This document shows positions 37,501-48,410 of a DNA stretch of 64,000 bases, piece by piece (the first letter of the stretch is position 1; every line of letters begins with the position of its first letter). The position numbers and the translations under genes were made by a program. The DNA lies in assembly GCA_035356615.1 (NCBI GenBank), contig DAOQSN010000003.1, forward strand, positions 9,835 to 73,834. Direction: 5' to 3'. Under the pieces are notes generated by a model. It was given only the letters and a program-made list of their open reading frames with translations. It did not search any database and was not told where the DNA came from. Origin of the DNA: Phycisphaerae bacterium. Lineage in GTDB: Bacteria > Planctomycetota > Phycisphaerae > UBA1845.

Positions 37501-38964
37501 TCAGTGTTTGGCTGCCTGAAAGCGTTCGATCGTCTCTTGCAGGGACGGCTTGACCCGGTCGTTGGGGCAGAGTTCGAGGGCCTGCTTCTCCAGAGCGATG
37601 GCTTCCTCGACGGCGCCGGTCTCGAACTTCGCCAGCGCGAGCGTGTCCAGGAACATCCAGTTCTTCCCGCCGGAGACCTCGTGGCAGCGCTGGGCGGCCG
37701 ACAGGGCCAGCTCGTTGAACTTGCCCTGGAACGGCGGTTCGGTAAGCAGCGTCCAGGCCGCCTCGTTAAGCAGGCCGGCGTCCTCCGCCGCCTTCTTGAG
37801 CAGCTCGGCGGCGGCGGCTTTCGCGGGCTCCGTCTTGCCCATGTCGGCCAGCAGGCGCACCTTCGCCCAGAGCCGGCGCGGCTCTTGCGGCTCGGCCGTG
37901 ATCGCGCGGTCGAGTGCCTCCAGAGCCACGTCGCCGTAGCGCGTCCGATGCATCTCCGAACCGAGCACGTCGGCCATCTGCGTCAGTGCCGGCGCGTCGG
38001 TCTTGCAGATTTCGAGGGTGGCCAGCACCCAGGCGCGGGCCTCGTCCTGTTGACCGGAGGCACTCAGAGCTCCGAAGTGCGCCAAGCGGGCGTCGATGTC
38101 GTTGGGGGCGAGGTCGGTCGCGCGTTTCGCGGCCTGGGCGGCCAGCTTCACGAACTCGGGATGGTTCTCGACGCCGAGCAACTGGTCGGCAAGGCCGGCC
38201 AATGCCTTGGGCTTGTCAGTGAAGCGCGACAGGGCCTCGCGGGCGATGCCCAGGGCCTGCTCGGGTTGGTTGAGCCCCTCCAGGCAAGCGACGATCTTGA
38301 AGTGCCACGGCTCGGTCAGCTCCGGGTTGAGCGCGAGCAGCGTGTCCGCGTGCTTCATCACGTCTTCCCATTTGGCACTGAACAACGCCGTTTGCAGATC
38401 GCGCTCCGCGCGGCGAAGCTGCTTGGCCCGCTGGACGTCGTACTTGCCGGCCAGCAACTGAGTGAGCGTCTCTTCCAGGTCGCCCGCGGGGTGCCCGATC
38501 CAGGCGATGCGCCCCTCCTTGTCGATGACGAACGCCGTCGGAATACCACCCTCGCCCGCGGCATCCATGTAGGCTTTGGAGGTGCGGTCCTCCTTCTCAT
38601 ACCCGATTGTGTAGGCGAGCTTGTCCCCCTGCTTCTGCACGAAGGCCTCGACTTTCTCCAGCGTGTTGTCAGGGTCTTCGGTGGTCAGGCCGATGATGGT
38701 GACGCCCGCGGGTCCGAACTTGCGTTGCAGCTCGGTCAGGTGAGGCACGGCCGCCAAGCACGGGGAGCACCACGTCGCCCAGAACTCGACGACCACCACG
38801 GACTTGCCCTTGACGGCCGCGAGGTCGACCGGTTGACCCTTGACCCACTTGTCCACTTGCAGAGCCGGGGCCGGATCACCGATGTCCAACGTTGCCGGCG
38901 CGGTCTGTCCGAAGGCTGCTCCTGCGCCCACCAGGACCAGGCCTGCCCATAGTGCGTGTCTCAT
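37501..38964 (-). CDS. Secreted TlpA/ResA-like thioredoxin-fold thiol:disulfide oxidoreductase fused to TPR-like helical repeats
   Basis: Signal peptide MRHALWAGLVLVGAGAAFG. VVVEFWATWCSPCLAAVPHL (CxxC). IPTAFVIDKEGRIAWIG. C-terminal helical repeats ending ALELCPND. Confidence 0.8.
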   Translation of the reverse strand: MRHALWAGLVLVGAGAAFGQTAPATLDIGDPAPALQVDKWVKGQPVDLAAVKGKSVVVVEFWATWCSPCLAAVPHLTELQRKFGPAGVTIIGLTTEDPDNTLEKVEAFVQKQGDKLAYTIGYEKEDRTSKAYMDAAGEGGIPTAFVIDKEGRIAWIGHPAGDLEETLTQLLAGKYDVQRAKQLRRAERDLQTALFSAKWEDVMKHADTLLALNPELTEPWHFKIVACLEGLNQPEQALGIAREALSRFTDKPKALAGLADQLLGVENHPEFVKLAAQAAKRATDLAPNDIDARLAHFGALSASGQQDEARAWVLATLEICKTDAPALTQMADVLGSEMHRTRYGDVALEALDRAITAEPQEPRRLWAKVRLLADMGKTEPAKAAAAELLKKAAEDAGLLNEAAWTLLTEPPFQGKFNELALSAAQRCHEVSGGKNWMFLDTLALAKFETGAVEEAIALEKQALELCPNDRVKPSLQETIERFQAAKH

Positions 38965-39184
38965 GCAGTTACTCCTGACTACCATTAACGTTGAGTCGTT
39001 TGCCTTTGCGGAAGTTGCCCCCGCGGGTCCAGCGAAGCAGCAGTGTCCGCCCCCGGGAGCTTGTCTAGGAAGTAGCGTCGGCCCGAGGGGGCCGACATGG
39101 AGGTCTCCCCACCTGCTGCAACGGGCTGCGGGCCGGCGAACGCACCGGTATGTCCGTGGCGGAAGGAGCTTCTTCAGCAGGTTC

Positions 39185-40684
39185 CTACGGCTGCTTGTCC
39201 TTCTCAAACTCCTGCGCGCGTGCTTCGAGGGCCTTCTTCTGTTCCTCGTCCTGGCACAGCTCCACGGCCTTCTTGAACATTTCCAGGGCTTCGGCGGTGG
39301 CCCCGTGGCGGAGCTTCGCCACGGCCAGAGTCAGCACGTACTCCCAGTTGGTGCCGCCGGACAGCTCGTGGCAGCGCTGAGCGGCCTCCAGGGCCAGCTC
39401 TTTGTAGCGGTCTCCGAGGAGCGGATCGGCAAGCAACTCGGAGGCGAACGCGTTCAGGCTGACCGGATCGGTCTGGGCCTTATTGAGGAACTCGCGTCCC
39501 ACGGCGCGGACGTCGCGGGGCTCCTTGGCGCCGCGGGCCATGATGAAGAACTTCGACTGCACGTAGCCGGCGTCCGTGGGGCGGGCCTTGATTGCGTCGT
39601 TGACCGCACGCAGCGCCAAATCCGTATACTGCCCGCCGGCCAGACCGGCCAGCGTGGTCGCGAACCCGTGCAGGTCGGGCGGTCTGCCCGCCAGCGTCTT
39701 GAGCAGCTTCGCCCCGAAGCGGGCGATTTCCGTGTCGTTCCGCTGCGCCGCCAGGGCCTGGATGTATACCAGGCTCGCGCTGTAGTCGTTCGGGTTGACC
39801 TTGAGGGCATCCTGGGCCGCGCGCGTGGCGAGCTTGTTGAAGCTGGCGCCGTAGTTGCCCCTCAGCAGCGTCGTGGCCAGCGATTGCAGCGACGTGGCAT
39901 CGCCCTGGAACTGCGCGATGGCCTTCTCCGCCACACCCAGGGCGGTCTCGCGGGTCGACTCGTATTGCAGGTACGCGAGCAGCTTCAACTCCCACGTGTC
40001 CACCTGCTTGGGGCTGCGCTCGAGCAGCTTGTCGATCTCAGCTACCTGGGCGGCGAGTTTCTCTTCATCGACCTTCCGACGTTCACTCCCGGACTGAGGG
40101 GCCCGAGGATTGGCGATCTGCAGCAGTTGCGTGCGGAGCACGGCCGCCTGCCGGGCGGTGTCCACGTCATAGGTACCAGCCAGGACGGCCGGCAGCACCG
40201 CGTCCAGCGCAAACGGCGAGCCGATCCACGCGACGCGTCCCGAACGATCCACCACGAAGGCCGTCGGGATGCCATCCTGTCCGGCGGCGCGCATGTAGGC
40301 GTCGTACGTCCGCCCGTCTTTGTCAAACGCAACCGCGTAGGCCATCTGGTCGCCCTGCCGCTGCACGAACGACCTGACCGCGTCCAGCTTGTTGCGGTCG
40401 TCCTGCTTGGTCACGCCGACGATCACGAGCCCCTGCGCGGCGTATTGCGTCTGGAGGCGTGTCAGATGCGGGATGCTCGCCCGGCAAGGACCGCACCACG
40501 TCGCCCAGAACTCCAGCACCAGCACGCCGCGCCCCTGCAGCATGGGCACGTCCACCGCCTCCCCCTTGAGCCACGTGTCAAGCTGGAAACGCGGAGCCGC
40601 GTCGCCGATCGTCAAGTCAGCCCCCGCCAGCGGGGCGAACAAGCACACTGCCAAGGCAAACACCGGCCCGGAAGTCCGCTTCAT
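39185..40684 (-). CDS. Secreted TlpA-like thioredoxin-fold protein fused to TPR-like repeats (tandem paralog)
   Basis: Signal peptide MKRTSGPVFALAVCLFAPLAGA. LVLEFWATWCGPCRASIPHL. IPTAFVVDRSGRVAWIG. Confidence 0.8.
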   Translation of the reverse strand: MKRTSGPVFALAVCLFAPLAGADLTIGDAAPRFQLDTWLKGEAVDVPMLQGRGVLVLEFWATWCGPCRASIPHLTRLQTQYAAQGLVIVGVTKQDDRNKLDAVRSFVQRQGDQMAYAVAFDKDGRTYDAYMRAAGQDGIPTAFVVDRSGRVAWIGSPFALDAVLPAVLAGTYDVDTARQAAVLRTQLLQIANPRAPQSGSERRKVDEEKLAAQVAEIDKLLERSPKQVDTWELKLLAYLQYESTRETALGVAEKAIAQFQGDATSLQSLATTLLRGNYGASFNKLATRAAQDALKVNPNDYSASLVYIQALAAQRNDTEIARFGAKLLKTLAGRPPDLHGFATTLAGLAGGQYTDLALRAVNDAIKARPTDAGYVQSKFFIMARGAKEPRDVRAVGREFLNKAQTDPVSLNAFASELLADPLLGDRYKELALEAAQRCHELSGGTNWEYVLTLAVAKLRHGATAEALEMFKKAVELCQDEEQKKALEARAQEFEKDKQP

Positions 40685-41260
40685 CGTTACATCCTCCGCG
40701 CCCGGTGCCGACGGCAGGTTCCGCGACCGATGCGTCCCGCCCCGGACACCCGGGTGAAACGAACCCGATCTCCGACTCCACTTTCATCATACCCTCTGCC
40801 GCCGGGTTTCACCACTGCACCAAGACGGGTCTCGGGGCGTTCTGCGAGCGGTGTGCCACGCCGCCGCGAAAGGGGGGGCTGGGGCGTCCGCTCTGAGATT
40901 TGAGATATCAAATCTCGCCACGCCCCCGCGATAGGGGTTCCGGGGGGAGCGGACGGCGGCGGCAGCGACCGCCCGGCGGGAGCGGCGGCGGGCATGAATC
41001 GGCCCCTCTCCCGCATCGGGGGCTTCCGCGCCCGGCGTGGGCTACGCCCCCATCGACCGCGGGCGAGCTCGGACGCCAAGTTCACGGCGTTGGGTGCCCT
41101 GCTTTCCCGCGACCGCGGTCGCGGGTAACCATGCCTCTGCGGACGCAGCACATGCCCACCCCCGCCTGCGGCGGGTGAGGGCATGGCACCCACGCTAAAA
41201 CGTACTCTCCCCCGGCGAGAGAGGCAGGGGTCTGGAGCTGCAGCGCGGGGCTGATGCCGA

Positions 41261-41295
41261 CCCCTCTCCCCCGGGGAGAGGGGCAGGGGTGAGGG
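41261..41295. repeat. Dispersed repeat CCCCTCTCCCCCGGGGAGAGGGGCAGGGGTGAGGG (a degenerate copy lies at about 41201-41232)
   Basis: Read directly. Confidence 0.8.
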
Positions 41296-41873
41296 CCGCG
41301 GAGGCGGGTGCATGCTTACGACTCGGAGGCAAGGTTGCCCGCGACTCCTCCGGAGGGGACGCCGCGGCCACGACACGCGCGGCGATGGATCGTCAGTCGC
41401 GGCGACGTGGGGGCTGCCGCTCCTCGGAGGTGCCGGCGGCTGCTGCTACGCTCGCCTGCCGGACTCCGCCTGATCCGCGGTGTACCGGCAGGTGGGCGTT
41501 CAACGAACCCCATCTTGCGGGTCGTGCGGGCAGCGCCCTGATCGCCCGGGAGCCGAAGGTCGCCGGATCGCCGGCGTGCGGGAGGTTGCCGGTAGCCCGT
41601 CGTGCAGGAGATGCCCACGGATTGCCCGCGTGCGGGAGGTTGGCGAATCGCCCGCGTGCCGGGCGGGGTCGGTCCTCCCCGGCCGGGGCCGGTCTAGACC
41701 GCCGGGGCTTGCCCGGGGTCGTGGGTGGATTAGAATGCTGCCGGTGGTGAGGACGTGGCCGGCCGGGGCGGCGACCCCGGCGGGCGTCGGGTGCTACGGC
41801 CACGCCCGCGAGGGTGGGTCGGTCCTGCACCCCAGCCGCAGAGGCCGACGCTGCCCAGCGGCGAAGCCCGAAA

Positions 41874-43252
<1,379 letters not shown>

Positions 43253-43256
<4 letters not shown>

Positions 43257-43474
43257 ACGTCACCTCCCCTTTGCTTTCGTCGGGGCAAGCGTACCAGCGT
43301 CAGCCGGTAGCCGAGTGTTGCGGCCAGCCTCTCGGCCGACGCGAGAGACAACCCCCGCTCGCCGGACAGCAGCCGCGACAAGGCGGATTGCTCGATACCA
43401 CCGTCAACCGACAGCCGGTATCGAGTCCGCCCGTCCGCTTGGATCAGCTTCCGAAGATCGTCCAGTAGGTTCAT
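43253..43474 (-). CDS. Small helix-turn-helix (XRE/Cro-like) DNA-binding protein
   Basis: MNLLDDLRKLIQADGRTRYRLSVDGGIEQSALSRLLSGERGLSLASAERLAATLGY. Its stop overlaps the integrase ATG (ATGA). Confidence 0.6.
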
Positions 43475-43505
43475 GCCGGTACCATACCCCATTGCTTGCC
43501 GCGCG

Positions 43506-45902
43506 TCAACTACAATCCGCCGGGTCATCGTAAATCGGTTCCGCGTCCGGGTCGGCTTCCGGGACGCGCCAGACCACCTCGTCCGGGGGGCCGTCTCCGA
43601 CGCTTTCGACACTGGCGACACTGGCGACGGTGCCAGAACCCCTGTTTTCGGGGTCGTGGCGCGGGGTTTCGTCGCCGTCGCCAATGTCGCCAAGCCGAAA
43701 CGTCGCCGTCGCCCGCCCACCGGCTGGACCAGGCTGCGTGTAGTCCCACCGCCCGAAGCCCGCCTTGACCAGGGCGTCCAACGCTTCCCGTGCCAGCTCG
43801 GGCTGGTCGCGGAATCGCCGGGGGCCGCGGGCCAAGTCGCGGGCTGTGCAGCGATTGCCGTGTTGGCGAATCCACGCCACCAGCTTCCGCCGATCCGCCG
43901 TCGCCGGGTCAACGCCTCCCTCGTCGCTCGCCAGCAGGGGGTACAACCTTGCGGCTTCGCTCCCGAACCACGACGCCAGCTTGCACGCTCTCTCCATGAC
44001 GCCGGGCGTCACCACCACCGCACCACCCGCCGCCGATGCTTCGCAGGTTGCCAACGTCAAGGCCAGCCGGAGCGCGATGCCCCGCAGCTTGTCCAGCGCG
44101 GCGCGCAGGTCATCATCATCGGTGGCGTCGATATCCTTGCCCAGGAGGTCGCGCCACGCTATGAACACCCGCCGCGCGTCCGACCCGACGCCGACCGTAG
44201 CCGGTATGGGCGAACCGGAGTCATCGGTCGCGGGCCGCCAGTCCAGCAGGGCCGCCAACAAGTCGCGCCACGCGAACACGGCCGCCGGGTCAAGCACGCC
44301 CGCCGACCACCGCGACGGCCGTTGGGGTGGCCACACCAACAAGAATCGCGCCAGAAAGCCGCTTTCGCGTTCCGCCCTGGCGAACGTGCGCTTCAGCGTG
44401 CGTGGTTGGATTCCGCCCAGCAAGCTCACCGCCGCGTGCTCCACGAATATGGAGACGCCGCCCGTCTTGCGGTCCACCAAAACGTGCTCCGCGCTGTACA
44501 TGCTAAGGTACGCTTCGCGGTCATTACCTCTGCCACCTGCCGCATACCGATCGAATCCACCGATCAGCCCCGACAGCTCGTCGCGCACGCACAGCAGCCC
44601 CAGCGGATTGTCGTTCAACATCGTGGCGAGGCGTTCTACTGTTATATCTGCCACCAACACACGCTTCTCGATCGGCCGCTCGGGTTCCAACGGTGGATCG
44701 GTTGCGGGGCCGTCGCGTTGCGATTTCTTCCACGTGGCGAGGTCCACCTCATAACGCGCCAACGCCGACACGTGCTCACGCATCGCGCGTTCGTGTTCGA
44801 CCCGCTCGGCCTTGAATAGTTCGATCAACGGCCGCGTAATCAGTCTCAGCAACGGGGTTTTCGTCGTGCCCGAGCGCCCGACGATCGTGCCCCAAAGCAC
44901 AGCGGCTTCCGACCAGCCGGGAAATACTTCGATGCGCGCTCGATTGCCGATGCACGCCGTTGCCGTGACCAGCGCCCCCAGGGCCGCCCATGCCGGATCG
45001 GTGTCGGTCGCCGCCGCCGCCGACAGCGCGAAGTCACGCATGGTGTCGGGCAGCAACTCGACGGGGAACGGTTGCCATTCGGCCGCCGGGTCCGGTGCAT
45101 CGTCCGCGGGGTCGTAGCGCGCTACGCTCGCCGCGATGCGCTCAACTTCGGCTTCGTCCAGCGGCACGTCACAGCGCTTGCGATTCACAATGTGTAGGGC
45201 CGTGGCGATTTCTTCTCGCTCAACACCCGCGCGCCGCATCACGCCCGCCATACTCATTAACGTTGCGTTGCGCTTGCCCTCTGGGATGCCCTGCCCGTTC
45301 AGCGGGTCCGGTCCGGCTGCCCCGCGGGGCTTCCGGGCCGGTTCCCGCAGAAGGTCCAGCAGCCAACCCGGAGCGTCGGCAAGCGGCGTGCTTTCAGGAT
45401 CGTGAATCCATCTATACAGATTGCCACTTGCATGATTGCTCGGCGGCGCCAACACGTATCCACCCGCGCCCCGCGTGTCGATGCCGGGGCCGAGTTTCCC
45501 CGCAGTGTTTCGGTACATGCCGTCCAGCGGATACCGAAAGTAATAGTGGCACCCACCGCCACCCGTAGCAGCGGTTACAGTTTTCGGCAACGGGCCATAC
45601 TGCACTTCGAGCTGCGCAAGGCTTGCGGGTCCGCCGTGGCGCGGGTCGATGTCGAGAACCAGCAAACCGCTTTCGGGTCCGGTGCATACTGCAACATTCG
45701 CAGACGGCCAGCGCTGCCACCAGGTGCGGATGCGTTCCGCGTCGGTCGTGCCCTCGGCCAGCCCGTGTGCCGGGCGCGGATGTTTGCCCGCAGACTTACA
45801 AGCAGGCTCGCCGCAAGAGCACCCCCCGTTTTTGATTGAATTACACGGGAACGTTCGCCAGCCGCACGCGGCGTAAGACAAGGCAGCGTCTAGCGTGGTC
45901 AT
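43506..45902 (-). CDS. Bifunctional primase-polymerase (PrimPol N-terminal, PriCT-like) fused to a DUF3987-type replication-helicase-like domain
   Basis: ALSYAACGWRTFPC...GKHP...NVAVCTGPESGLLVLDIDPRHGG. GGYVLAPPS. GKRNATLMSMAGVMRR. C-terminal ...VRDELSGLIGGFDRY...REAYLSMYS... Confidence 0.8.
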   Translation of the reverse strand: MTTLDAALSYAACGWRTFPCNSIKNGGCSCGEPACKSAGKHPRPAHGLAEGTTDAERIRTWWQRWPSANVAVCTGPESGLLVLDIDPRHGGPASLAQLEVQYGPLPKTVTAATGGGGCHYYFRYPLDGMYRNTAGKLGPGIDTRGAGGYVLAPPSNHASGNLYRWIHDPESTPLADAPGWLLDLLREPARKPRGAAGPDPLNGQGIPEGKRNATLMSMAGVMRRAGVEREEIATALHIVNRKRCDVPLDEAEVERIAASVARYDPADDAPDPAAEWQPFPVELLPDTMRDFALSAAAATDTDPAWAALGALVTATACIGNRARIEVFPGWSEAAVLWGTIVGRSGTTKTPLLRLITRPLIELFKAERVEHERAMREHVSALARYEVDLATWKKSQRDGPATDPPLEPERPIEKRVLVADITVERLATMLNDNPLGLLCVRDELSGLIGGFDRYAAGGRGNDREAYLSMYSAEHVLVDRKTGGVSIFVEHAAVSLLGGIQPRTLKRTFARAERESGFLARFLLVWPPQRPSRWSAGVLDPAAVFAWRDLLAALLDWRPATDDSGSPIPATVGVGSDARRVFIAWRDLLGKDIDATDDDDLRAALDKLRGIALRLALTLATCEASAAGGAVVVTPGVMERACKLASWFGSEAARLYPLLASDEGGVDPATADRRKLVAWIRQHGNRCTARDLARGPRRFRDQPELAREALDALVKAGFGRWDYTQPGPAGGRATATFRLGDIGDGDETPRHDPENRGSGTVASVASVESVGDGPPDEVVWRVPEADPDAEPIYDDPADCS

Positions 45903-46117
45903 CGCGCACCGCCTTTCGTGCGCGCGTCGAGCCAGGCTTGCAGCGCGTGAACGTTGTAAAGGGTTCGGGCCCCGAGCCGCAGGTGCGGGATTTCGCCGGA
46001 GTTCGTGCGCGACCACAGCAACCGCACGCCGATGCCCAGCATTCGCGCCGCCTCACGCGCGCCAACCGCCAGGGGGGCCGGGGCGTCGGGGGTCACAGAG
46101 TGTTTCTTACTGGGCAT
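45899..46117 (-). CDS. Excisionase-family (AlpA/MerR-type HTH_17) DNA-binding protein
   Basis: LAVGAREAARMLGIGVRLLWSRTNSGEIPHLRLGARTLYNVHALQAWL. Confidence 0.7.
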   Translation of the reverse strand: MPSKKHSVTPDAPAPLAVGAREAARMLGIGVRLLWSRTNSGEIPHLRLGARTLYNVHALQAWLDARTKGGAR

Positions 46118-46316
46118 CGGTGTCCCCTTTGCGTGCTGCCCGTGCCAGTAGTTCGCGCTCTACGGCAGCACAATTGAAGAGGAGGCGGCGCCCAGCGCGC
46201 AGGTAGGGCACGCGCTCGGCTTCGGCTTCGGTGCGCAGCCAGGCAGCGGGCACCCCGAGCCGGAACGCCGCGCGCTCCAGTGAGATGAAACTTTCGTTGG
46301 TGTTGCGTGGGTCCAT
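46107..46316 (-). CDS. Second excisionase-family HTH protein
   Basis: ISLERAAFRLGVPAAWLRTEAEAERVPYLRAGRRLLFNCAAVEREL. It overlaps the next gene by 11 nt. Confidence 0.65.
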   Translation of the reverse strand: MDPRNTNESFISLERAAFRLGVPAAWLRTEAEAERVPYLRAGRRLLFNCAAVERELLARAARKGDTDAQ

Positions 46317-46390: not shown

Positions 46391-47065
46391 TTAGTTTCCG
46401 GGTTTCTTTCGGATTTGGCCGAGCTGGGCCAGGGCGGCTTGGCAACGTTCGCGCGTGGCGTTTTCAGTGTTCACGGCCAGCATCGTCTGCACAAGCTTCA
46501 TCGCGTCGCCGGGCGAATAGCAGAAGTTTCGTTGACCGGGCCGGGCCGTCGTCAGGCCAGCTCGTTTCGCATACTTATTCAACGTGTCATTCGTGACGCC
46601 CGTTAGCCCGCGCAGCTCGGGTATGGTGACGCCGGGGCCGTCCGCCACGTCCGCCACCGGGGGCACGTCGGCAGCGGGCGTCGGTTCAGCATGCACGGGG
46701 ACGGGGTCAACCCATCGCAGTACACCGTCTATGGCCAACGCCAGGTCGCGCGGCACGTCGCCGAAACGCTGCCACGCTATGGGGTCCTGCTTGGCCAGCA
46801 GCGCCACCCACCGGCTATCCGTCGCGCACCGCACCGCCTCTTGCAGCACCGACCGCAACGCGGGCGCCTCGCGCTCGGCCATGTAGGCCGCCAGCGCAGG
46901 CACCAGTGCCCCAAGCTGGTTCGCCATCTCCCGGAACGCTTGCACGTCGTCGGGATACGCTTCTGCGGGGCTACGCCCGCGAAGCTCCGCGTAGTTGCGC
47001 TCGGGCAATTCGAGTAAGGCGTCGCGGATCGTCAGCAGCCGGGAGCGAAGATCGTCGGGGGGCAT
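46391..47065 (-). CDS. Hypothetical island protein with C-terminal HTH-like segment
   Basis: ATG at 47065 (MPPDDLRSRLL...). VTIPELRGLTGVTNDTLNKYAKRAGL resembles an HTH. Confidence 0.55.
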   Translation of the reverse strand: MPPDDLRSRLLTIRDALLELPERNYAELRGRSPAEAYPDDVQAFREMANQLGALVPALAAYMAEREAPALRSVLQEAVRCATDSRWVALLAKQDPIAWQRFGDVPRDLALAIDGVLRWVDPVPVHAEPTPAADVPPVADVADGPGVTIPELRGLTGVTNDTLNKYAKRAGLTTARPGQRNFCYSPGDAMKLVQTMLAVNTENATRERCQAALAQLGQIRKKPGN

Positions 47066-47348: not shown

Positions 47349-47573
47349 TCACTCGCCGGCGGGGGCTTGGGCTGCCATTGCGCACGCCCAGTCGCGGGGG
47401 ACACTCCGCAACACGCCGCCCAAGCAGTGTGCATAGGCGCCCGTCCGACGATTGCGGATCAGCATGCCCACCATGGCGTCACGGACCGGATGCTGCACCC
47501 ACCGTCGGATAACTTCGAACCCGTCTGGCACCAACCCGGCCAAGGCCGGGGGTTCCTGCTGAGTCTGAGTCAT
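47349..47573 (-). CDS. Hypothetical small island protein
   Basis: ATG at 47573 lies after GGAGGTGA. 74 codons; no recognisable motif. Confidence 0.45.
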   Translation of the reverse strand: MTQTQQEPPALAGLVPDGFEVIRRWVQHPVRDAMVGMLIRNRRTGAYAHCLGGVLRSVPRDWACAMAAQAPAGE

Positions 47574-48086
47574 CGTGTCACCTCCATTGTTCACTTCCCC
47601 CCCCCATGCCGGGCGAGACACACAATCGCCTCCCGGACGGCCGGGGGCAAGCTCGGCCACGCTTTCACCACCGCCGCAAGCTGGGGGTCCGCCGCTTCCG
47701 TTCGGGGTCCGTCCGGTTCCCGAGGGGGGTCCGCCGGGGCCGGTTTTCTGCGCCCAACTGCTGACAGTTCTGCTGACGCGCGGGCTGGGGGTTTCGTAAG
47801 TCCTTGTCCCGTAACGTCTTGTGGCGCCGGGCATCGGTCTACGGAACCGAAGGTTGGAGGTTCGAATCCTCCGCGGCGCGATTTCAACGGTTTGTGATTG
47901 ACGCGGGTGGATCTCTACGAGGGGTGATTCTGCGCGCAGAGCCGGCGGCCCAGGGGCAGGCTCGCTTGACTCGGGACGCCGGCGGGGAGGCAGTGTGCTG
48001 CCTGGGGTCGGGGGGCGGCCCGCGGGGTACATTCGGACCTGGCGTCACTGCCCGGTGACGGCGGTGGCGGCGGGAGCAGGGACGCT

Positions 48087-48410
48087 ATGAGCGCGGCGAC
48101 GGAGCATCCGATCCCCGAAGGCGATTTCGCGGCGGCGTTGGCGGATTGCGACGCGGCGTTGGCGGATTGCGACGCGGCGTTGGCGGATTGCGACGCGGCG
48201 TTGACGTACCCCGAGAACCTCGGCGTGGGCCGGCCGAATCAGCCGGAGCACGCCGCGGTCCCCTGCGGACGCGGCCAGGCGCTGGTAGCGCTGGGCCGGC
48301 ACGAGGACGCGCTGGACGCCTGGAAGGACGGGGCGGCCGGTGCCGAGGGGTCGCCGGAGAAGACTGAGTACCGCCGGCTCTGCGCCGAGCAACTGGCGTC
48401 TGACAAGTAG
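48087..48410 (+). CDS. Small TPR-like protein containing a perfect 21-bp x3 tandem repeat
   Basis: ...GDFAAALADCDAALADCDAALADCDAALTYPENL...RGQALVALGRHEDALDAW resembles a TPR helix pair. The repeat lies at 48132-48203. Confidence 0.45.
   Translation: MSAATEHPIPEGDFAAALADCDAALADCDAALADCDAALTYPENLGVGRPNQPEHAAVPCGRGQALVALGRHEDALDAWKDGAAGAEGSPEKTEYRRLCAEQLASDK

Follow-up and report, generated by a model that had tools for sequence, protein, structure and literature searches.

A tyrosine integrase gene that probably spans its own attachment site in a tRNA-integrated replicon of Planctomycetota

The integrase gene of a small genomic island in a Planctomycetota bacterium very likely spans the attP of the island itself, with integration removing a conserved C-terminal module from the enzyme and excision restoring it. 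According to this model, the circular form would encode a 532-aa integrase, of which the body, with a putative arm-binding part as well as core-binding and catalytic ones, takes up residues 1 to about 375, and recombination with the tRNA gene would cut the open reading frame (ORF) inside the linker. The integrated copy would make a 458-aa enzyme that has all catalytic residues and is devoid of the terminal module, and the piece coding for this module would be left behind at the opposite end of the island, at a distance of 5.9 kb and without a start codon of its own. Excision would rejoin both pieces of the gene. This class of mechanism has been known for about 30 years from phage Mx8; what is new is the conserved module, the attP encoded by the linker, the size of the family and its spread across the phylum.

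The island and its attachment site

Within the window, by which we mean the whole 64-kb stretch of DNA analyzed (66% GC), an intact tRNA-Arg(ACG) gene was found by ARAGORN (65.9 bits with the tRNA model of Rfam). The 3' two-thirds of this gene are present a second time, forming an exact 50-bp direct repeat (41898-41947 = 47831-47880) with 5,883 bp between the two copies, or 5,933 bp if one copy is counted. Exact repeats of this kind are the classical mark left by elements that integrate into tRNA genes at their 3' part. The tRNA-Arg(ACG) gene at 41874-41947 is the integration target, on the attL side, and its 3' 50 nt are supplied by the island. The element is a 5.9-kb integrative replicon without capsid genes, and all of its genes are tightly packed on one strand. 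Its features are the following.

41874-41947, plus strand: intact tRNA-Arg(ACG) gene
41898-41947: attL copy of the core repeat (copy 1), which begins at tRNA position 25, where the anticodon stem starts, and reaches the 3' end
43256 to 41880, minus strand: integrase in the integrated state, 458 aa, from the ORF list
43253-43492, minus strand: small HTH_3 (XRE-type) regulator (Pfam HTH_3, E = 4e-6; PHROG transcriptional regulator/repressor; gene call in L003)
43506-45902, minus strand: replication protein, 798 aa, with Prim-Pol, PriCT_1 and DUF3987 helicase-like families (Pfam families precomputed in L003)
45899-46117, minus strand: HTH_17 excisionase-like protein, 72 aa (Pfam HTH_17, E = 7e-9; PHROG 66, "excisionase and transcriptional regulator")
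46107-46316 (69 aa), 46391-47065 (224 aa) and 47349-47573 (74 aa), minus strand: three co-directional ORFs
47591-47830, minus strand: 79 codons and a TGA stop, the detached 3' part of the integrase gene
47831-47880: attR copy of the core repeat (copy 2), which is the 3' tRNA fragment that was displaced
Predicted attP junction of the circular form: TTGTGGCGCCGG-core-TTGCAGTTTCTC
Predicted attB junction of the empty site: CAATTGGATAGA-core-ATTTCAACGGTT

The stop of the HTH_3 gene overlaps the integrase start by 4 nt. The replication protein also matched a PHROG DNA primase/helicase (E = 1e-33), and the HTH_17 protein is a candidate for the directionality factor. The three co-directional ORFs had no Pfam or PHROG matches. 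The region exists as an independent, identical copy in JGI L003. When the 74-nt attP and attB junctions of this exact element were searched in metagenome contigs, 0 exact matches were obtained.

At the attR end, ARAGORN calls the displaced fragment (47805-47881) a tRNA-Arg, and as a D-arm-less molecule this fragment passes the Rfam tRNA threshold (31.8 bits versus a cut-off of 29). It scores as a tRNA because the island bases beside the core (GCGCCGG, 47823-47830) pair with the 3' acceptor strand. A second tRNA-Arg gene at this position was rejected, as the call is made up of the attR fragment and of adjoining island bases that happen to pair; we take it for a probable pseudo-tRNA, likely to mislead annotation.

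The surroundings of the island were also inspected. Just outside it, a small ORF (48087-48410) contains a perfect 21-bp tandem repeat of 3.4 copies (48132-48203) that encodes AALADCD heptads. Upstream of the tRNA gene, a 1.1-kb region (40700-41870) of 70-74% GC is without a convincing ORF, and there are a 26-bp tandem repeat of 4.5 copies (GATCGCCCGCGTGCGGGAGGTCGCCG, 41540-41659) and more short repeats near 41200-41290. Just left of the tRNA locus, positions 37501-40684 (minus strand) are occupied by two adjacent paralogues of 568 and 499 aa, harboring thioredoxin/AhpC-TSA domains and a TPR-like C-terminal region.

The detached end of the integrase

In the integrated state, the integrase ORF reads through the repeat as ...RRGGFEPPTFGSVDRC and stops after SIQLS, its last codons being antisense to the D-arm of the tRNA, exactly as the initial annotation had described. 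On the minus strand, core copy 1 encodes integrase residues 437-453 (GGFEPPTFGSVDRC). The protein is a tyrosine recombinase (PF00589 at E = 7e-17, residues 186-360), in which R226, K255, H321, R324, H347 and Y357 are invariant in 30 homologues, Tyr357 being the catalytic tyrosine. The truncated 458-aa form keeps all of these catalytic residues, plus 96 aa past Tyr357. One database protein (P0001) is 100% identical to the integrated-state integrase, and two others (P0002 and P0003) end in ...FGSVDRCSI(R/Q)LS, which is the integrated junction seen in this window. About 25 aa past the catalytic tyrosine, a (L/M)RATGTD motif is nearly invariant in the family alignment (A1).

At the other end of the island, an ORF of 98 aa (47591-47887, minus strand) carries the second repeat copy in the same frame as the integrase, again as initially annotated. 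Since the 50 bp are identical in both copies, the position of the crossover within them is irrelevant. Joining the island ends in silico into attP (47830 + core + 41948) gave an uninterrupted 532-aa integrase frame, in which a tail takes the place of the 5 aa. The swap for 5 residues therefore stands as first proposed, but the tail measures 79 aa instead of the 81 aa given then. Because attP lies within its ORF, the encoded integrase differs between the integrated and the episomal states (458 versus 532 aa), which had been anticipated as well.

The first 44 or so codons of the tail continue the linker, and the last 35 or so encode a conserved module, DPQLAAVVKAWPSLPPAVREAIVCLAR. The GC content of the last 35 codons at the three codon positions (0.80/0.57/0.83) compares with 0.73/0.54/0.81 in the integrase body, and the first 44 codons have a GC3 of just 0.52. 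The TGA stop of the tail is located 17 nt ahead of the ATG (47573) of the next co-directional gene, which lies behind a GGAGGTG ribosome-binding site. No start codon was found upstream of the motif inside the island, the sole one being a TTG in host DNA. The C9 run near the tail end that had been pointed out is present (47597-47605, G9 on the coding strand) and encodes Gly-Gly-Gly before the last Lys codon and the stop, but nothing beyond these glycine codons is supported: we rejected it as a slippage site, because the run has the same length in the identical copy L003 and is not conserved by the homologues. Homologous tails end in variable Gly/Ala-rich sequence.

The public gene call in L003 covers this tail with a 161-aa ORF in a different frame (5423-5908 of L003, corresponding to window 47349-47834), the GC3 of which is 0.64. 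Current annotation, by this call in the wrong frame, hides the integrase tail.

An AlphaFold2 model based on alignment A1, which holds 30 sequences of which only 4 cover the tail, predicts that the 532-aa protein consists of a lambda-Int-like body, a disordered linker of about 120 aa and a terminal two-helix hairpin. The body (pLDDT >90) comprises an N-terminal three-stranded sheet, with strands predicted at residues 10-12, 21-25 and 31-35 (pLDDT >90), a core-binding domain made of helices and the catalytic domain. For residues 380-499 the pLDDT is about 35, and the two terminal helices are predicted at residues 502-510 and 516-528 (pLDDT 76-85). Foldseek retrieved lambda Int, Brujita Int, Tn1549 Int, Xer and Cre, the best PDB match being full-length lambda Int (1z1b_A, E = 2e-10, 372 columns) and the second one Brujita Int.

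The tail consensus, DPDLAxVVxAWPxLPxxxRAxIxAxV, describes a terminal module, some 30 residues long and including invariant Trp and Leu, which is strongly conserved, whereas the linker is not. A profile of the tail matched 898 proteins in a word-indexed search and 12,877 clusters when run against 1.84 billion representatives, 2,372 of them at E <= 1e-10; no family for the tail was found in Pfam or PHROGs. The early impression of a helix-like, conserved motif at the tail end is borne out by these cluster matches and by the two predicted helices. Among the matches listed, all were unannotated proteins of 35-173 aa with the motif at their C-terminal end, and many of these ORFs begin with antisense-tRNA peptides (GGFEPPTHGFSVRC, MGRGGFEPPTHGFSVRC..., GGIRTPD..., RTRTFDPLIKSQL). 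These short motif ORFs would be the detached integrase ends of integrated copies.

When the frames in alignment A1 and in the orphan ORFs P0121-P0240 were read, different family members were seen to use all three antisense frames of the tRNA T-arm (GFEP, IRTP/RTPD and DSNP peptides). The linker thus tolerates whatever the targeted tRNA dictates.

We found that the split gene also occurs in its unbroken form. Among 643 homologues, there are three uninterrupted long integrases, P0026 (553 aa), P0049 (563 aa) and P0062 (553 aa), each of which contains an antisense-tRNA peptide and has the same motif at its end; P0062 was assembled in three samples. P0049 carries ...GIEPVTFGSVDRC followed by PTSQ..., that is, the same tRNA-Arg core as the window element. 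Two contigs encode it, which are circular permutations of each other and whose ends overlap by 123 and 55 bp; each closes into a circle of 7,474 bp that shares the gene set of the window element (DUF3987 replication protein, HTH_17 proteins) and lacks an intact tRNA gene. The circular element L001 has the same tRNA segment, from the same starting tRNA position, inside its integrase gene, where the core likewise lies 3' of the catalytic Tyr codon. A different 7,474-bp contig, with the orphan tail P0238, was rejected as a circular element and is an unrelated chromosomal contig.

A genome scan yielded at least 586 relatives, with Planctomycetota as the only phylum (Phycisphaerae, Sedimentisphaerales, Pirellulales, Gemmataceae, Isosphaeraceae and Bremerella). 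We examined 80 related genomic loci, with a flank limit of 10 kb for the repeat search. In 61 of them, the integrase ORF terminates at a tRNA gene or inside it, and among the tRNAs concerned are Arg, Ser, Phe, Cys, Lys, Thr, Asp, Met, Leu and SeC. A repeat of the tRNA 3' part was present within 10 kb in 10 loci, and in all 10 of them joining the ends gave an open frame; roughly 50 of the 61 tRNA-adjacent loci yielded neither a repeat nor a tail within the 10 kb. The 10 reconstructed relatives have islands of 5.5-9.9 kb, tails of 59-80 aa and replacement tails of 15-84 aa. The motif HMM matches 7 of the 10 tails, and those of L062, L072 and L074 are more divergent and alike by eye only. L072 belongs to Bremerella cremea JCM 17758, a cultivated carrier. 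The same split is seen in relatives that use at least nine other tRNA isoacceptors.

On a 106-kb Planctomycetota contig (L043, 8795-10350), the tail motif is found directly downstream of the integrase match and in another frame, which could reflect either a tandem array of two elements recreating an attP-like junction or a frameshifted long form. In the literature searched, we found no description of this Planctomycetota integrase family.

These data bear on whether the tail belongs to the integrase at all. It could be an independent small gene or a chance open frame whose continuity with the integrase is incidental; gene callers do list motif ORFs of 35-173 aa by the thousands, and at 66% GC long stop-free frames are common in the window. 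Against this, all 11 reconstructions (the window element and the 10 relatives), among them low-GC Sedimentisphaerales, have a frame that stays open through the junction, naturally fused forms exist, the motif has no upstream start other than the TTG in host DNA, and the orphan ORFs run back into antisense tRNA fragments. The continuity of the frame goes beyond chance since the same arrangement recurs in relatives, and the conservation of its amino acids excludes a chance ORF. We therefore regard an unconnected origin of the tail as extremely unlikely. On this sequence evidence, the tail is a genuine coding part of the integrase; both of the checks proposed for it at the outset came out in its favor, namely homologues with a matching C-terminal extension (P0026, P0049, P0062 and 10 of 10 reconstructed relatives) and a coding signature (GC3 of 0.83 in the motif part and conservation in thousands of sequences).

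The gene order points to a further consequence, as integration would also uncouple the co-directional downstream genes from integrase transcription. It is conceivable that this is what matters: integration would break a circular, one-directional unit, and the genes from 47573 on, eventually including the replication module, would lose read-through from the promoter of the integrase and HTH_3 genes. The co-directional layout, with the next gene 17 nt past the tail stop, agrees with such a transcriptional switch, as do the same layout in the circular relative (12-nt gap between the integrase gene and the next one) and the location of the sole promoter-like site on the gene strand upstream of the HTH_3-integrase pair. 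However, the promoter scan is weak, the sigma-70 consensus may not apply in Planctomycetota, and a conserved protein module at the end of the ORF is left unexplained. As the main explanation we consider a transcriptional switch clearly unlikely, although it is compatible with removal of the module and does not exclude it.

An attP within coding sequence

The initial annotation had also noted a short sequence repeated near both island ends and suggested that these could be arm-type sites. Indeed, the 64 kb contain exactly two occurrences of CAACTGCTGACAGNNNNGCTGACG, at 42063-42086 and 47755-47778, where 0 are expected by chance (3 or fewer mismatches allowed). The pattern of the arm repeat is CAACTGCTGACAG-N4-GCTGACG, and the two sites are as follows.

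42057-42086: putative P' arm-type site, on the integrase side, 110-139 bp from the core; encodes residues 391-398 or thereabouts
47749-47778: putative P arm-type site, on the tail side, 53-82 bp from the core; encodes residues 471-479 or thereabouts

The P' site holds two GCTGAC hexamers 12 bp apart, and all four plus-strand GCTGAC hexamers of the island fall in the two arm repeats. Because the two repeats are read in different frames, they are DNA-level features. A comparable geometry was found in all 11 elements: on the integrase side, the longest word common to both arms is 111-176 bp away from the core, and on the tail side the distance is 54-95 bp. In many cases this shared word forms a tandem pair with a spacing of 12-15 bp, and its sequence varies from one element to another. 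Taken singly, some of the shared words do not exceed the length that chance would give, but chance would not produce the geometry that they have in common. The conserved geometry in the 10 related elements thus lends comparative support to the idea of arm-type sites and supports reading the paired arm repeats as putative sites of this type.

The P' repeat, the core (residues 437-453) and the P repeat all map inside the stretch predicted to be disordered. The DNA encoding the linker is attP itself, made of the P' arm repeat, the 50-bp tRNA core and the P arm repeat.

The linker-coding P arm also contains a 22-bp tandem repeat of 2.7 copies (GGGGGTCCGCCGGTTCCGAG, 47683-47737), and GGGGGTCCG of this repeat recurs at 42315, on the other side of the core. 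The 22-bp repeats could be further protein-binding sites, for instance for an excisionase-like protein, or mere Pro/Gly-rich coding sequence.

Known systems and the possible role of the swap

The att-spanning integrase of phage Mx8, IntP, and its prophage form IntX were reportedly described by Tojo et al. in 1996 and Magrini et al. in 1999. In Mx8, attP lies inside int, and integration creates a new int 3' end and an altered protein that recombines with different efficiencies (PMC6070905). The integrases of Mx8 and SSV have been said to "extend across attP", and the Islander pipeline allows for such cases (PMC4383910). As in Mx8, the window element has a tyrosine integrase ORF that runs, downstream of the catalytic tyrosine, through an attP core derived from a tRNA 3' end, and a C-terminal segment that is swapped for a host-encoded one on integration and restored by excision. 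The two proteins are also of similar size (533 aa for IntP, 532 aa here), and both contain an antisense-tRNA peptide, ...STGLEPVLLGS... near residue 420 in Mx8 and residues 437-453 here. Both elements possess an excision gene of the HTH/MerR type, uoi in Mx8 and the HTH_17 gene here. In BLASTP, the N-terminal, putatively arm-binding domains are weakly similar (56 aa, E = 0.001), and otherwise only the tRNA-derived stretch matches. The tails, in contrast, have no detectable similarity, and the AWPxLP module is absent from Mx8, a 49.5-kb tailed phage of Myxococcota, whereas the element described here is a 5.9-kb capsid-less Prim-Pol replicon of Planctomycetota. Unlike in the single phage Mx8, the att-spanning design holds here across a family using many tRNAs. 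Mx8 was not retrieved at E <= 1e-5 when the 532-aa integrase was searched by tblastn against 50,697 phage records, which returned only distant catalytic-domain matches in Streptococcus phages and similar ones. The integrase thus appears, judged by its layout, to work like Mx8 IntP, but it is not a sequence-level member of that family.

In SSV-type viruses, the integrase gene is broken and the provirus is left without an intact integrase. These fuselloviruses of Sulfolobus carry attP in the integrase gene and target a tRNA, and integration partitions the gene (PMC4383910). Here, unlike in the SSV type, residues 1-453 with the whole catalytic domain stay intact, and only the distal module is removed. 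Lambda Int is the best structural match over all three domains, and its attachment site likewise has arm repeats on both sides of the core. Lambda attP, however, lies outside int, and lambda Int (356 aa) ends a few residues past its catalytic Tyr342, whereas the 532-aa integrase runs 175 aa beyond Tyr357.

Integration-dependent immunity of the mycobacteriophages BPs, Brujita and Charlie was reportedly described by Broussard et al. in 2013. In these phages, attP is located in the repressor gene, an ssrA-like degron is removed, and there are no arm-type sites and no directionality factor (PMC9262239). The likeness is that integration at a tRNA-Arg-type attB truncates the protein of the attP-containing gene and changes its properties. 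Here, in contrast, attP is in int, the removed part is a predicted two-helix module, and the element has paired arm repeats and an excisionase-like gene. Thus, the SSV type and integration-dependent immunity, which the initial annotation had chosen for comparison, differ in their defining features, and Mx8 IntP/IntX is the closest precedent.

The mycobacteriophages nevertheless suggest another reading, in which the tail is a degradation signal that makes the episomal form unstable and the integrated one stable, or the reverse. In BPs and Brujita, C-terminal tags on Int and repressor set the decision (PMC9262239), and Brujita Int ranks second among the structural matches of the integrase body. 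The last residues of the tails, however, vary (...HGGGK, ...AAAGR, ...KTGRR, ...FKSTG) and in no case resemble LAA, what is conserved is a two-helix unit further inside, and attP is not in a repressor gene. As the extreme C termini are not conserved, a degron switch becomes less likely, and we consider it very unlikely.

It could also be that the overlap is neutral overprinting in a compact replicon, the module having some role in the episome and its loss being without regulatory meaning, so that both forms recombine equally. In line with this, the truncated form is complete in its catalytic residues and extends 96 aa beyond Tyr357, these small elements are densely packed and have all their genes on one strand, and the replacement tails of the relatives are arbitrary in length (15-84 aa) and sequence. 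On the other hand, the module is conserved far more than the linker, and it always lies beyond attP, so that integration always removes it, at no fewer than ten different tRNAs. Moreover, in Mx8, the sole case tested by experiment, the swap is reported to alter activity (PMC6070905). We therefore regard neutral overprinting as unlikely, if not strongly so.

The explanation that we prefer is that the integrase gene spans its own attP and loses the module upon integration. By analogy with IntP and IntX of Mx8, removal of the module may alter the activity of the integrase or its choice of partner, for which we put the chances at about even. Such an altered activity would stabilize the integrated state, and integration would then amount to a reversible covalent modification of the enzyme.

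More broadly, and at somewhat short of even confidence, we propose that Planctomycetota harbor a very large family of elements whose integrase consists of a body, a disordered tether encoded by attP and a detachable module, that the module may act as a sensor of the episomal or integrated state controlling recombination, and that the more than 12,000 clusters of short ORFs would be its detached C termini. Because the tether is encoded by the entire attP, with its arm sites and the 3' half of whichever tRNA is the target, in any of the three antisense frames, the family could retarget many tRNAs without breaking the protein.

If so, this would account for a recurrent annotation error and for thousands of small orphan ORFs labelled "hypothetical", and island finders could use the motif as a marker of the far island end. 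The mycobacteriophage literature regards an attP with arm sites in a coding region as a severe constraint (PMC9262239); the present element suggests that a full-size attP with putative arm sites can sit there by encoding a linker that is predicted to be disordered. What was a curiosity of the single phage Mx8 (1996-1999) would become a general, conserved design of a whole bacterial phylum, and its conservation argues that the C-terminal swap has been selected for and is not accidental. The module of about 30 residues may provide a testable handle on how a tyrosine integrase could sense whether it is encoded by a circle or by the chromosome.
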